Under the pieces are notes generated by a model that was not told where the DNA came from, did not search any database, and was given only the letters and a program-made list of their open reading frames with translations. Both the position numbers and the translations under genes were made by a program. Positions 29,509-34,891 of a stretch of DNA of 64,000 nucleotides are shown here, piece after piece (position 1 is the first letter of the stretch; the number at the start of each line of letters is the position of its first letter). Source of the DNA: an uncultured Methanoregulaceae archaeon (GTDB lineage Archaea > Halobacteriota > Methanomicrobia > Methanomicrobiales > Methanospirillaceae); NCBI GenBank assembly GCA_963841015.1, contig CAWJAX010000003.1, positions 320,001 to 384,000 of the forward strand, read 5' to 3'.

Positions 29509-30296
29509 GGCGGGACTCCGATGTTCCGGTAGCAGCCCAGCTCCTTTACCGTAGAAATGGATTTAAGTTCATCAAGTGCCTCGCAGGTATCCGTTGTCCA
29601 GGCATAATCCAGAAAGAACACATAATTCCCCATACCTCTTTTTGACGGACGCGATTCGATCCTGGTGAGATTAATCTCCCGCCGGGCAAAGACTCCCAGA
29701 AGATCATGAAGAAGACCGGCACGATCGATGGTGGGGTCAATAACAATACTGCATTTTTGTGCACCGGTTTTTTGTGAAGCAGCGCGTGAAATGCGTACAA
29801 ACCGGGTTGTATTGGATGCATTGTTCTCAATGTTGGAGACGAGGACAGGCATTTTGTAATAGGATGCAGCGGATGCAGAGAGTATCGCACCCGCGTTGGG
29901 GGTTTTTTTTGCTTCTAGGGCACTGGATGCATTGCTGCTGGTATGGATAACGGGAAGTGCCCATTTTTCAAGATGCCCGCTGCACTGCTCATGGGTCTGG
30001 GGGTGTGCATAAATAACCCGCATCCGTGAAAACGGAACCAGGGAAGCGAGATGGTGGTGAATAGGCATGTACATCTCTGCGGTAATGAAAACAGGGAACC
30101 GTAATAATCCATCAAGTGTTTCGCCGACTCCTCCCGCTTCTGAATTCTCAATTGGTACTATTCCATCCCCTTCCCCTCTGGCTACTGCCGAGAAGATGCC
30201 GTGAATAGTTGCTGCCAGACGCACAGACTGACATCCCATCTTCAGGGCAAGTTCATGAGAGAACGTCCCTTCAGGCCCCAGCGTGATTATCGTCAT
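29505..30296 (-). CDS. pheA: Prephenate dehydratase with ACT domain
   Basis: LGPEGTFS, PIENS, NTTRF and INLTRIESRP. Confidence 0.92.
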   Translation of the reverse strand: MTIITLGPEGTFSHELALKMGCQSVRLAATIHGIFSAVARGEGDGIVPIENSEAGGVGETLDGLLRFPVFITAEMYMPIHHHLASLVPFSRMRVIYAHPQTHEQCSGHLEKWALPVIHTSSNASSALEAKKTPNAGAILSASAASYYKMPVLVSNIENNASNTTRFVRISRAASQKTGAQKCSIVIDPTIDRAGLLHDLLGVFARREINLTRIESRPSKRGMGNYVFFLDYAWTTDTCEALDELKSISTVKELGCYRNIGVPP

Positions 30297-31118
30297 CGGT
30301 TCACCATACATTCTATCAGGGCATCGGTCATTTTCATGGCTTCATCGCAATAGGTGCCGAGATGCCGGGTGTTTTGAAGGAAGAATTCCCGGAATAGTTC
30401 AGGATCCTCTGAATCCACAATCCTGCGGAGATTCTCTGCTGATGAAGTACATATCGACAGCACCTCCGGCACAAAAGGATTCTGCTGAAGAATATCTGCG
30501 TAGAGGGACGGATCCTGCGACAATAATCTTCCGACAAGGGAGAGTTCAATATGGTAGACCGGGCTGGTGAATGCCCGTGTTGTTTCGATATCGATTCCCA
30601 GCCGCCTTACTGAATCAGCCATGCAGAGCGTGACGAAATGGGTGAGACCCTGTACTACCGCCATCATCCGGTCGTGCTGTTCGGGCGTTGCGACAGTGCA
30701 TTGTGCCCCTTCACATCGGAAAATGGACAGGAGGGATTCGACCGTTTTCTCATCGGCACGGGCTGGACAGACGATAATTGTCTGTTGCCGGAGTGATTGT
30801 ACCGTTGGCCCGAACAGCGGGTGTAACCCGATCACACGGGCTTTTGAATTGAGCATGGCAGCTATCGGGTACTGCTTTGAGCGAGGTGAAATCACAGAGA
30901 ATCTGATCTTTTTTAAGAACCGGTGAAATCTCATTAATAACCCGGACAGTATCATGAATTGGAACTGATACGATGACAAGATCACATTGTTTTGCCAGTT
31001 CTGTATTTGTCAGAAGGGTTGACCTCCCAGAAACCACTACCTCATACCCCGCACGTTCAAAAACCGGGATGAAGAGCCTGCCCATTTTTCCGGTCCCACC
31101 AATAATTCCTGCCTTCAT
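30293..31118 (-). CDS. tyrA: Prephenate dehydrogenase, +1 frameshift near 30867
   Basis: IIGGTGKMG...DFTSLK joins HPLFGP...HDRMMAVVQGLTH when one G is removed from the GGG at 30867-30869. Confidence 0.9.
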
Positions 31119-32108: not shown

Positions 32109-32896
32109 TTGTGCTGCTCCAGCGCCTTTGCCGGATCCACGTTGTTATGCACCACATTGCAGAGTGCCTGGACAAACGATTTCGTGTCCTTGCGCTGGAA
32201 GGCGTTCCGGCCAACACAGACCCCGGCGCCCCCGCCATTGACCGAGTCCCGGATGATCTGGAGAGACTCGAGGTCGCCGGTCTTCTCGCCGCCGGCAATA
32301 AAGACAGGTACCGAGCAGGCTTTCACGATCTTTTTGAACGCCTCAGGGTCATTGGGGTAGTTGGTCTTGATCATGTCAGCGCCAAGCTCCTCAGCTACCC
32401 TTACAGCATGCCCGATCGACTGCGCCGAGAAGGAGTCAATCCCCTTGCCCCGCGGGTAACTCATGATAAGGAGCGGCATGCCCCAGCGGTTGCAGTCGCG
32501 TGCAACATTGGCACCGATCTCGAGCATCTTGGACTCATTGGGCGAGCCGAGGTTGATGTGAATAGAGACCGCGTCGGCGCCGAGCGCAATCGCTTCTTCA
32601 ACCGTGCAGACCTGCACCTTGTCGTTCGGATCCGGGTTGAGCGAGGTACTCCCCGAGAGATGGATGAACAGGCCGATGTCACGGCCGTGCTTCCGGTGCC
32701 CGCGCTTGACGAGCCCCTTGTGGAGCACTATCGCGTTTGCACCACCTTCGCTCACGTCCGAGATGACTTTTGTCATATCCAGCAATCCCTCGATCTGTCC
32801 CATGGAAAAACCGTGGTCCATCGGTACGATCACTGCTCTTCCCGTGTTCCGGTTTATGATCCGTTCGATCCTGATGTCCTTTCCAATCATCTTCAT
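32105..32896 (-). CDS. ADH synthase/DhnA-type class I aldolase (AroA' family), paralogue 2
   Basis: PMDHG, HLSGST, YPRG, GAD.IKT, AGG and GRN.FQ. Confidence 0.88.
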
Positions 32897-33684
32897 TCCT
32901 CCAGAATTTTCAGTGCTTCCTCTACGCTCTTGTTTGCATGCACGATACAGGCCGCTGCCCGGACGAACTTAGCCGGGTTCTTGTGCTGGAATGCGTTCCG
33001 GCCAATCGAGATGCCTGCTGCGCCTCCGGCCATCGCGCCTTCTATCAGTTCCAGGGTTGTGCGGTCATCGGTCTTTGAACCTCCGGCCACCACGACCGGT
33101 ACCGGACAGCCCCGGGTGACCTCACGGAAGCTCTCCGGGTCACCGGTATACACGGTCTTGACAATATCAGCCCCGAGCTCTGCTGCTACCCGTGCCGCGA
33201 GTTTCACGTTCTCCGTATCGTTCTCCGCTTTCACCTTCTTTCCCCGAGGGTACATCATGGCAAGGAGCGGCATGCCCCACTCCATGCACTCAACCGCGAC
33301 CACGCCAAAGTCGGCGAGCATCCGGGCCTCCGATTCGGCTCCGATATTCACGTGGATCGAGACCCCGTCCGCACCCATCTTCAGGGCATTCTGTACCGAG
33401 TTCACGAGCACTTTCTCGTTCGGGTCCGGCCCGAGCGAGGTGCTCGCGGACAGGTGCAGGATTAATCCTATGTCCCTCCCACCCTGCCGGTGGCCGTGGA
33501 GCGCGAGCCCCATGTGCCCTATCACGCAGTTCGCCCCGCCGTCCGCAACCAGGTTCACAGTCTGGCCCATATCGATAAGCCCGGGAATCGGCCCGTTCGT
33601 AACCCCGTGGTCCATGGGCACGATGACGGTTTTTTTCGTATTACGGTTCATGATTCGTTCAAGACGGATTTCCTTTCCTCTCAT
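32893..33684 (-). CDS. ADH synthase/DhnA-type class I aldolase (AroA' family), paralogue 1; first operon gene
   Basis: PMDHG, HLSAST, MMYPRG and GADIVKT; ATG 33684 is preceded by GGAGGAG. Confidence 0.9.
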
Positions 33685-33747
33685 GGTAACAACAACTCCT
33701 CCCCCTGCATTCACACAGATTTTAATTTTTAGTGCAAACCAGAGGGC

Positions 33748-33909
33748 TTACCGGTACCAGAAAAAATACCGGAAATAATAGCTGGAATAAATGCCAAAGT
33801 CGCGATACGCGGACGTACCTGCGTTCACGATTTCAGAAACGGTTGCTTCGATGCAGTGGGCGGGTGAACTAGTTGAGATAAAGACATTCACGGGCAAAAA
33901 AACCCTCAT
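33748..33909 (-). CDS. Putative aromatic-amino-acid-rich leader peptide (53 aa)
   Basis: Hand translation MRVFLPVNVFISTSSPAHCIEATVSEIVNAGTSAYRDFGIYSSYYFRYFFWYR*. The stop lies 63 nt before the first aro gene; start uncertain. Confidence 0.7.
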   Translation of the reverse strand: MRVFLPVNVFISTSSPAHCIEATVSEIVNAGTSAYRDFGIYSSYYFRYFFWYR

Positions 33910-33956
33910 GAATGCGGTGGCACTCGTCCTGCATGATCTTTTGTATGATGTGCTTT

Positions 33957-33987
33957 GTATTTAACTATGTGTGCTACAGTGTAGCAC
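33957..33987 (-). promoter_or_regulatory. Putative aro operon promoter: TATA-like box plus perfect palindrome
   Basis: TTAAATAC on the minus strand (33964-33957); GTGCTACA-G-TGTAGCAC at 33971-33987. Confidence 0.55.
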
Positions 33988-34261
33988 GGTCGAAGTGTGA
34001 ATAAATAGATATGGTTTTTGTCTAAGGACATTGGAAAAAAATTTCAATCTTTTTTTAGGAGAAAATCTAATATGAATAAAACCTACTGAATGAATCAAAG
34101 CGGTCAGACACATGGGATGCATAGGGAAATAAAAAACCTGTGACTTCTCAATATTTCGCACATTTTTTTTCAGAACCGGAATCCATGCTGCAATGAAATT
34201 GAAGACAGGGCCGGTTTCGAATCCGGTTCCGGGTCCACCCCCCACGCATACTCATGAATCC

Positions 34262-34891
34262 CTACCGTTGCGGCAGGGATCCCATCAGGGCATAGAAATA
34301 CTCAGGCTGCCGGGTGGTGAAAAGACCGTGCCAGGCTTCGAGCGTTGCAGGTGCCATGACATCAAGACTCCGAAATATATGGTACGCGAACTCTAATGGT
34401 GCAAGTCCGCTTGCAGTGATGAGATTGCCGCCAGTCACTGCGGGTTCGTTCACATAATAATTCTCGCCACGGTAGTTCGGGCAGAACATTTTCAGGGCTG
34501 TAGGATCGTTGCTGGTATGCGGGCGTTTGTCCAGCAGGCCCGCGTTTGCAAGGCCAAGCGTCGCACCGCAGATAGCGGCAACAAGTATTCCTTCATCAAG
34601 CAACCGGCCTGCCACCTTGAGGGTGGGCACCTGTGCCGTATCAAGCCAGGTATCTGCTCCCGTCAGCACGAGCACGTCGCCAAGTACCGGGTGGATATCC
34701 CTTATGAGAACTTCCGGCGTCAAATGCAACCCGCCCATGGTGGTCACTGGGTCTGATGTACTGCCGCACAGTACAACAGAATACCTGAGCGCCGGATCTT
34801 TCAGGTAACGTCCGGAGCGGAGCTCGGCCGTGACATGGCCCGGTTCCCAATCGGAAAGGGTATCGAGGATATAGAGATAGAGTGTGCGCAT
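34262..34891 (-). CDS. DJ-1/PfpI family protein
   Basis: DWE, T.GGL, AAICGA, HTSN and LITASG. Confidence 0.88.
   Translation of the reverse strand: MRTLYLYILDTLSDWEPGHVTAELRSGRYLKDPALRYSVVLCGSTSDPVTTMGGLHLTPEVLIRDIHPVLGDVLVLTGADTWLDTAQVPTLKVAGRLLDEGILVAAICGATLGLANAGLLDKRPHTSNDPTALKMFCPNYRGENYYVNEPAVTGGNLITASGLAPLEFAYHIFRSLDVMAPATLEAWHGLFTTRQPEYFYALMGSLPQR

Follow-up and report, generated by a model that had tools for sequence, protein, structure and literature searches.

A conserved leader with an aromatic codon tail before the aromatic amino acid operon of Methanomicrobiales, a candidate archaeal counterpart of bacterial leader-peptide attenuators

The genome stretch analyzed here, 64,000 nucleotides (nt) of an uncultured Methanoregulaceae archaeon (GCA_963841015.1, contig CAWJAX010000003.1, positions 320,001 to 384,000; in the following called the window), carries on its minus strand an operon for the biosynthesis of aromatic amino acids. 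Its first gene, aroA', is preceded by a short open reading frame (ORF) that ends in a tract of codons for Tyr, Phe and Trp. Judged by comparison with orthologous loci, the leader is a conserved feature of this operon across the methanogenic order Methanomicrobiales. The aromatic codons are maintained in a single reading frame, and a hairpin is located directly behind the stop codon of the leader. The element is probably a cis-acting leader of the aro operon that senses the supply of aromatic aminoacyl-tRNAs via ribosome stalling within the translated leader. Such ribosome-mediated control had been put forward by an earlier inspection of the bare letters of the window (the sequence-only reading), and this interpretation is supported by the conserved, frame-specific tail and by the hairpin directly after the stop.

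At the studied locus, the leader ORF with the aromatic tail (upstream ORF 2, uORF2) is located at 33748..33909 on the minus strand and consists of 53 codons. The translation obtained for it, MRVFLPVNVFISTSSPAHCIEATVSEIVNAGTSAYRDFGIYSSYYFRYFFWYR followed by a stop codon, is identical to that of the sequence-only reading, and the codon numbers given there could be reproduced by counting on the translation. The tract at 33751..33807 (minus strand) comprises 19 codons, of which 11 are aromatic (6 Tyr, 4 Phe and 1 Trp), and 8 of the last 10 codons belong to this group. The distance of 63 nt between the leader stop and the aroA' ATG at 33684 was likewise found as described. Throughout the six frames of the whole 2.28-Mb source genome, 11 of 3,214,243 stop-free 10-codon segments reach at least 8 aromatic codons, and with a threshold of at least 7 there are 78 loci. 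As the 11 segments come from 6 loci, the single locus is rare, yet not decisive; the observation is settled by more than 130 distinct orthologous leaders, in which the aromatic codons are conserved in a frame-specific manner. Downstream of the other aromatic codon clusters of the source genome, no relevant genes were found.

The leader ORF has to be regarded as essentially unannotated, since no Pfam family matched the leader peptide and a single match was obtained among protein clusters: gene callers almost never call this ORF, with one similar predicted protein (hypothetical) among 5.8 billion clustered proteins. The scan of positions 33400-34500 with Rfam 15 resulted in three weak matches with 15-16.5 bits (thresholds 40-62, E 3.6-8.2), none of which attained the gathering score. 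Contigs from RNA libraries of two studies cover positions 33644-33992. Some of these continue into unlike sequence, and the contigs are uninformative on the transcription start site (TSS), the 3' end and slippage at the T-run.

For the detection of orthologous leaders, the 2-amino-3,7-dideoxy-D-threo-hept-6-ulosonate (ADH) synthase encoded by aroA' was compared with 41 related genomes. A match was obtained in 36 of them and 30 loci were retrieved, of which one (L008) was dropped with 16 nt of upstream sequence. The sequence-only reading had staked its case on in-frame aromatic clusters in orthologous leaders; they are present in 29 of the 29 usable aroA'-anchored loci, which, with the studied locus included, span 10 genera and 6 families. 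The frame of the leader relative to the aroA' ATG varies among these loci, which identifies it as an independent ORF. In a second approach, a degenerate pattern for the conserved 5' block of the leader (described below) was searched in species-representative genomes and yielded at least 119 stretches. Nearly all of the matches listed are records of Methanoregula, Methanolinea, Methanoculleus, Methanospirillum, Methanogenium, Methanocalculus or Methanomicrobiales, and among these matches an aroA' homologue follows within 1200 nt after the leader in 115 of 119 loci, while 3 ORFs run off the contig. The closest of the matches listed, L102 from a Methanoregula metagenome-assembled genome (MAG), has an aroA' that is 99.2% identical and shows several F/Y/I/S swaps in the leader tail, so the leader evolves faster than the enzyme while its composition is kept. 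Four further loci carry titles of Spirochaetia, Bacillota, Bacteroidales and Rokubacteria MAGs (L033, L053, L097 and L101); they carry the leader together with an aroA' that is 77-91% identical to the studied one, and they are probably mis-binned Methanomicrobiales contigs.

The exact block pattern occurs in 130 of 201 Methanomicrobiales genomes with a completeness of at least 80%, and the reversed control pattern in none. From 15 pattern-negative genomes 13 aroA' loci were taken, and 11 of them possess a leader: four with diverged blocks (L177, L178, L180 and L182) and seven with a leader lacking the block. Outside the order, no comparable ORF was found before the aroA' orthologue in 20 genomes that represent 14 further families of the phylum.

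The codon statistics are based on 144 leader ORFs, 131 of which are distinct; the following numbers refer to the latter. On average, the last 12 codons contain 6.76 aromatic codons in frame, compared to 2.24 and 0.99 in the other two frames. At least 5 aromatic codons are reached in 122 ORFs, compared to 3 and 0 in the other frames. The final sense codon is aromatic in 77 ORFs, and in a further 46 the tail closes with an aromatic codon at the second-last position (together 123 of 131). Summed over the last 15 codons, the tails contain 499 Phe, 420 Tyr and 94 Trp codons, with a synonymous usage of 340 TTT, 159 TTC, 352 TAT and 68 TAC. Tail codons are exchanged among F, Y and W as well as among synonymous codons, and this in a frame-specific manner. 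A total of 30 leader lengths from 26 to 335 codons was observed, with 29 between 26 and 128 codons and the 335-codon ORF being a fusion with aroA'. As 26 of these length classes lie between 37 and 90 codons, the frame must have survived many in-frame indels. The proposal that one leader serves all three aromatic tRNAs holds for Phe and Tyr, whose codons are universal, and only in part for Trp, whose codons occur in 84 of 131 tails; Phe and Tyr are thus the universal signals. A short ORF before a biosynthetic operon that is rich in codons for the end products, and a codon cluster that is kept in frame while the peptide drifts, are features of leaders of the trpL/pheL type, and both are found here.

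The same numbers bear on two simpler explanations of the ORF. It had been cautioned that T-rich DNA inflates Phe and Tyr codons, and an ORF that arose by chance in such intergenic DNA, or a terminator region with oligo-T that is read as Phe and Tyr codons, would agree with an intergenic G + C content of 42% (window: 48%) and with the T-runs inside the tract. Such an origin can practically be dismissed, because the aromatic codons are enriched threefold to sevenfold over the other frames in the 131 distinct sequences and the frame stays open through many indels. Alternatively, the product of the ORF could be a small functional protein rich in aromatic residues, with co-transcription as its sole connection to the aro genes, in line with the conservation of its 11 N-terminal residues and the open frame. 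This is very improbable: the middle and the tail evolve fast and with indels, with the composition alone being kept, and the searches of Pfam and of the clustered proteins gave the meagre results reported above. RNA structure and overlapping frames account for the conserved N-terminus, and the invariant position directly before aroA' together with the bias for end-product codons points to a role in cis.

The second conserved element of the leader is the hairpin P4 (33701..33746, minus strand). Its 5' arm begins 2 nt past the leader stop and its 3' arm ends in the G-run of the purine-rich region GGGGGAGGAG (33696..33705, minus strand), which is located 11 nt from the ATG at 33684 and which, by sequence complementarity, we take to be the Shine-Dalgarno (SD) region of aroA'. 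For 117 distinct sequences the stretch from the leader stop to the aroA' ATG was folded by minimum free energy (MFE). The first helix begins within 10 nt of the stop in 114 of these (median 2 nt) and has at least 6 stacked pairs in 86 (74%), compared to 36% of the shuffles; the median z-score of the folds is -1.89. Thus, the presumed regulatory codons are placed at the end of the short ORF, from where a ribosome could reach the downstream structure. The 3' arm ends not more than 20 nt from the aroA' ATG in 99 of 109 short-gap sequences. In total, 85 distinct pairs of hairpin arms were found, such as CCCUCUG/CAGGGGG, UUCCCGG/CCGGGAG, CCCAUUUU/AAAAUGGG and CAGCAG/CUGCUG; between families the arms differ completely, and the complementarity is kept. 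In alignment A2, consisting of 39 Methanoregula-type sequences and scored with a structure that was mapped from the own fold of the studied locus, one of its members, and is thereby favoured, 80.8% of the cells are paired versus 33-60% with a slid partner. With the same scoring, double changes were found in 8 of 15 pairs, amounting to 24 cells versus 13.6 +/- 2.9 in shuffles, of which 3 out of 500 reach 24. RNAalifold found no structure on the MAFFT alignment A2, as the hairpin arms are misaligned there.

Two peculiarities of the junction between hairpin and aroA' were observed in Methanoregula. In one subgroup (L007, L011, L033 and L098) about 60 extra nt are located between the hairpin and aroA', and this insert includes a sequence similar to the old GUUGUUGAUU-GAGAG start region, as though the junction had been duplicated. 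Furthermore, the 3' arm of P4 (GAAUGCAGGGGG, 33701-33716) repeats the presumed 5' end of the transcript, AUGCAGG (33929-33934), and the UGCAU in the middle of the Methanoregula leader could pair with either of the two. This repeat was not seen in the P4 3' arms of other families.

The sequence elements at the 5' end that the sequence-only reading had listed, namely ATG 33934, the T7 run at 33902-33896 (A7 on the plus strand), GTG 33891 and the TATA-like TTAAATAC, could each be found. The TATA box (33957..33964, minus strand) is separated from ATG 33934 by 22 nt. Among 125 distinct orthologous contexts, 116 have their best TATA-like 8-mer ending at a distance of 22-25 nt upstream of the conserved ATG. 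Archaeal transcription starts at a characteristic distance after the TATA box. According to this geometry, the transcript start should coincide with ATG 33934 or be adjacent to it, so that a leaderless mRNA beginning with this codon is suggested. The ATG (33932..33934, minus strand), a putative leaderless start, is in the -1 frame relative to the aromatic ORF and opens another short ORF, uORF1 (33869..33934, minus strand; MQDECHRIHEGFFARECLYLN followed by a stop). The orthologues of uORF1 read M-x-G-E-C-F-F-A-G-E-C-[LF]-Y-L-x-stop, have mostly 15-21 codons and always end after the second repeat of the block. Among the pattern matches listed, at least 116 of 119 loci have the ATG 7 or 25 nt ahead of the block, with a fixed spacing to the TATA box and the same frame offset. 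A sequencing error in the A7 run, which had been considered as the cause of this offset, is therefore excluded, since the offset is constant while the T-runs range from 4 to 7.

Regarding the start of the aromatic ORF itself, for which ATG 33909, GTG 33891 and GTG 33828 had been offered, the position 33909 is occupied by ATG or GTG in each of the 28 distinct block sequences that were obtained from 30 aroA'-anchored loci, while GTG 33828 is not conserved. Upstream of the promoter, the element AGCACACA at 33968-33975 (minus strand) adjoins the TATA box. Methanoregula-type loci have the arrangement ..TAGCACACAnnnTTAWATAC, which is absent from other families; the element could be similar to a transcription factor B recognition element or be an extra factor site.

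In the proposed mechanism, the mRNA would probably start at or beside ATG 33934, and the ribosome would translate a short ORF that closes with 10-20 codons mainly for Phe and Tyr, often also for Trp, and that stops about 2 nt before a stable hairpin bordering on the ribosome-binding site of aroA'. With plentiful aromatic aminoacyl-tRNAs, the ribosome would finish and depart, the hairpin would stand and downstream expression would be low. With scarce aromatic aminoacyl-tRNAs, it would stall on the final aromatic codons and keep the 5' arm of the hairpin open, so that aroA' and the translationally linked genes would be expressed. Besides translation, control might also be exerted via transcription, e.g., by factor-dependent termination on uncoupled RNA, or via mRNA stability.

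Several observations weigh against this mechanism or restrict its form. The SD region is paired in 71 of 101 MFE folds (70%), compared to 77% in composition-preserving shuffles. Sequestration of the SD region as such is not supported by these folds, as the pairing does not exceed that of the shuffles; what the data support is the presence and the position of the hairpin. In the long-gap loci L007, L011, L025 and L028 (106-127 nt), the hairpin stays close to the stop, at a large distance from the SD region. A classical intrinsic terminator is not evident, because no T-run follows P4 at the studied locus and GGAGGAGUUGUUGUU is found there instead, and the MFE folds of whole leaders revealed no conserved alternative structure that would replace P4. 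In the lineages that carry the block, the conserved 5' ATG and the aromatic ORF are in different frames. Furthermore, a premature stop or a shift of the tail was observed in 7 of the 131 distinct ORFs (L068, L088, L104, L108, L110, L122 and L128), caused either by decay or by assembly errors. Finally, in the loci L175 and L184 (genus g74, family f6) no recognisable aromatic-tailed ORF was found within 500 nt of aroA'. The block pattern is missing in 27 of 27 sampled genomes of this genus, and its lineage may have lost the leader.

The block by which the leaders were searched is an 18-nt repeat at 33877..33909 (minus strand) with the pattern RTGRRKRYYTTTTYSCYNSKGNNNGNYTTTAYC, which in the aromatic frame encodes M/V-x-V-F-[SL]-P-V-N-V-F-I. 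It has one exact match in the source genome; a near-match at C3:459700 is located inside a long coding gene and was rejected as a chance match. The repeat unit (GGUGAAUGU..) is present twice, and thrice in Methanoregula, and it contains the ATG or GTG at 33909. This codon is therefore also a part of a repeated RNA motif and a candidate start, not a proven one. In the MFE folds, the extreme 5' end including both candidate start codons pairs with a segment 50-65 nt downstream. The resulting helix P1, supported by folds and conservation, has the 5' strand AUGCAG (33929..33934, minus strand) and the 3' strand CUGCAU (33851..33856, minus strand) within the variable middle of the leader ORF. The pairing AUGC/GCAU was found in 23 of 23 Methanoregula-type sequences with both strands invariant, and in alignment A3 GCAU is the sole fully conserved stretch of the variable region. 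Other families show matching changes on both strands: the 5' variants AUGCAAGG, AUGCGUGG/AUGUGUGG and AUGCUGGG go together with CUUGCAU, CCACGCAU and CCCGUGCAU, respectively. The cognate duplexes have a mean of -12.1 kcal/mol versus -10.1 kcal/mol for 5' ends combined with windows of other classes, and 24 of 39 are better than more than 80% of the latter, a supportive result in which the relatedness of the sequences is ignored. The first repeat forms GGUGAA/UUCGCC with G-U changes only. For alignment A1, RNAalifold predicted the hairpin P2 alone, without a double compensatory change, and P1 and P2 share the segment GGUGA. No link from P1 or P2 to P4 was found. Possible roles of the 5' domain are to confine initiation to the co-transcriptional period, to make the polymerase pause, to recruit a factor or to promote a change of frame.

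This domain gives rise to a further explanation, according to which P1, the repeat hairpins and the block are the real regulator, i.e., a protein- or ligand-binding RNA or a DNA operator shortly behind the transcription start, with the aromatic ORF being secondary. It would account for the conservation of the tandem repeat at the nucleotide level across 6 families, for a long-range helix that is predicted in nearly all sequences and energetically preferred in its cognate form, and for the invariant GCAU inside a variable stretch. The block also overlaps the presumed TSS-proximal region, in which archaeal repressors act. A pure operator or riboswitch, however, leaves the frame-specific aromatic codons unexplained, and neither an Rfam family at threshold nor a compensatory double change in the RNAalifold structure could be found. 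Seven genera have lost the block, and in these the ATG and the open frame persist together with the aromatic tail and the hairpin; the block is therefore dispensable and the tail is not. For these reasons, a leader in which the 5' domain alone is the regulator is considered improbable.

The block-less leaders also bear on the question of how ribosomes reach the tail. Those of the pattern-negative genomes (L173, L174, L176, L179, L181, L183 and L185) retain the TATA box, the ATG, the open frame and the aromatic tail, and together with L019, L021 and L024 they amount to 10 leaders in 7 genera. In all 10 of them, the 5' ATG is in the frame of the tail. In block-bearing leaders, by contrast, the aromatic ORF in the +1 frame overlaps an upstream ORF that owns the sole 5' AUG. 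On the basis of these sequences, a two-stage sensor can tentatively be proposed: translation would always begin at the leaderless AUG, and in block-bearing lineages the tail would be reached by a programmed +1 frameshift. Two sites of uORF1 are candidates, for which sequence and conservation were considered: the T7 run at 33896..33902 (minus strand; YUU UUY, in the uORF1 frame GGU UUU UUU) with Phe in the A site, and CTT TAT at 33878..33883 (minus strand; YUU UAY) with Tyr in the A site. Slow decoding would favour the slip, and unshifted ribosomes would terminate at the uORF1 stop, far from the hairpin. Starvation might thus be sensed twice, a possibility regarded with reserve, in that a hungry Phe or Tyr codon would trigger the +1 shift at CUU-U or UUU-U and the ribosome would then stall on the Phe/Tyr/Trp tract and unfold the hairpin in front of aroA'.

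CUU-U and UUU-U are re-pairing sites of known +1 shifts, e.g., in prfB, and YTT TTY and YTT TAY are invariant in the uORF1 frame of 28 of 28 distinct block sequences from aroA'-anchored loci, with the T-run at the first site varying from 4 to 7. This invariance is not independent evidence for re-pairing of the P-site tRNA, because the same nucleotides encode V-F-S and V-F-I in the aromatic frame. Two of the genera with an in-frame ATG can be interpreted as carrying 1-nt deletions at CUU-U or UUU-U sites. Three relatives have frames that are fused at or near a candidate shift site. L183 (genus g76) can be aligned gapless with its relative L018 except for one missing T in CTTTAT; this 1-nt gap places the ATG in the frame of the aromatic tail, and the resulting peptide ..G-C-L-I-A.. 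equals the predicted product of a shift at the second site. In L176 (M-C-G-E-C-V-L-P-V) and L185 (M-C-E-E-R-F-L-P-V), a uORF1-like N-terminus is joined to the FLPV of the uORF2 frame near the first site. The case of genus g77 depends on the alignment, a gap-free one being possible as well. From the first site on, synonymous variation fits the aromatic frame (three codons each for Ser and Pro), and the offset of the ATG in the pattern loci points in the same direction as its in-frame position in the block-less leaders. On the other hand, all 28 block sequences provide the aromatic ORF with an ATG or GTG of its own in a constant position (ATG in 33 of the 131 distinct ORFs), for which internal initiation is the simpler explanation. 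The link between block and offset is equally expected if GUG is the true start and the loss of the block forces the use of the 5' AUG, and the lineages are related, so that the counts are not independent. As in the known programmed +1 frameshifts (prfB CUU-UGA, yeast Ty1 CUU-AGG and antizyme), there are overlapping frames and a CUU-U or UUU-U site, the speed of A-site decoding could set the shift rate, and relatives with fused frames exist. In contrast to them, the A site would hold a sense codon for the regulated amino acid and the product of this candidate event would be a regulatory leader instead of a protein. If the frameshift occurs, it would be a natural regulatory use of starvation-induced frameshifting and a new sensing principle, and in several genera the loss of 1 nt would have made the shift permanent.

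Downstream of the leader, eight co-oriented aro ORFs had been recognized in the sequence-only reading, and these were confirmed by NCBIfam. The first gene, aroA' (32893..33684, minus strand), matches the ADH synthase family TIGR01949 with 355.5 bits (cut-off 299.45). The operon encodes two ADH synthase paralogues, dehydroquinate synthase II, prephenate dehydrogenase, prephenate dehydratase, EPSP synthase, a shikimate kinase/dehydrogenase fusion and chorismate synthase. Within it, the prephenate dehydrogenase gene tyrA (30293-31118, minus strand) is split over two frames: the ORF 31118-30750 contains the N-terminal nucleotide-binding part (PF02153 positions 40-85) and the ORF 30985-30293 contains PF02153 positions 89-152 plus PF20463. 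The split is due to either a frameshift or an assembly error. On the upstream side, a co-oriented gene at 34262-34891 (minus strand) encodes a DJ-1/PfpI family protein (PF01965, 72.7 bits), and about 300 nt with several T-runs separate it from the leader promoter.

The ilvB loci of the source genome were located as well as trpE, and no Trp-rich leader ORF was found upstream of the latter. Instead, the upstream region of trpE (locus L150, G000:C5:403600-403900) contains TGTATA/TGTACA-like boxes. TrpY of Methanothermobacter is a DNA-binding protein that represses trp genes at TRP boxes. By analogy, the boxes before trpE recall TRP boxes of the TrpY type, which suggests that the Trp branch is under a different control. 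Both systems concern archaeal control of aromatic amino acid genes, and they differ in that TrpY acts as a protein at TRP boxes and not as a translated leader. A crude genome-wide scan for further amino-acid-rich leaders was noisy and missed even the aro leader, which was masked by a spurious antisense ORF.

Leader-peptide attenuation is a textbook mechanism of bacteria, and the E. coli leaders trpL, pheL, hisL, thrL and ilvL are its classical examples. As in the present case, these attenuators consist of a short ORF with codons for the end product near its end and a hairpin close behind it, with conservation of the codon bias but not of the peptide sequence. The differences are that the leader described here belongs to Archaea, that it appears to start leaderless, that neither a U-tract after the hairpin nor an alternative antiterminator was found, that one leader with Phe, Tyr and often Trp codons precedes the common pathway, and that there is a structured 5' domain with two overlapping frames. 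It is thus similar to trpL and pheL in its logic, but, lacking a U-run after the hairpin, not with respect to the terminator; archaeal termination signals differ from the bacterial hairpin plus U-tract. In the translational attenuation of ermC and cat, a ribosome stalled on the leader opens a hairpin next to the ribosome-binding site, as is proposed for the aro leader. The stall is brought about there by an antibiotic and the nascent peptide, whereas here it would be caused by scarce aminoacyl-tRNA.

A functional parallel with a leaderless mRNA is provided by the poly-Cys short ORFs of mycobacteria (Ms5788A), which were shown to regulate translation, through pairing with the SD sequence (10.1101/834739). 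Their first cistron is leaderless, as is presumed for the aro leader, and they share with the latter the regulatory codons at the 3' end and an RNA structure before the SD sequence of the next gene; there, the Cys tract itself pairs with the SD sequence, whereas here a separate hairpin follows the stop and the SD pairing is not above the composition control. The two also differ in amino acid and domain of life, Cys in mycobacteria and aromatic residues in Archaea. Passages in two archaeal ribosome-profiling papers mention upstream ORFs as uncharacterised only (PMC7261190, PMC11456600). In agreement with the sequence-only reading, which knew of no proven archaeal precedent, no amino acid leader-peptide attenuator of Archaea was found in the full-text literature, with supplements and most subscription journals outside the search. 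By analogy, the aro leader has the appearance of a first archaeal counterpart to these bacterial attenuators.

Archaea combine a eukaryote-like transcription machinery with a translation that is coupled to transcription. What would be new here is a bacterial-type logic on archaeal, apparently leaderless machinery, together with a structured 5' domain and a possible frameshift. The leader represents a concrete, order-wide and testable case of leader-peptide logic in Archaea, for which the natural variants, with and without the block, with fused or offset frames and with short or long gaps, are ready-made controls. It would show how methanogens tune the shikimate pathway of the 6-deoxy-5-ketofructose-1-phosphate (DKFP)/ADH type.

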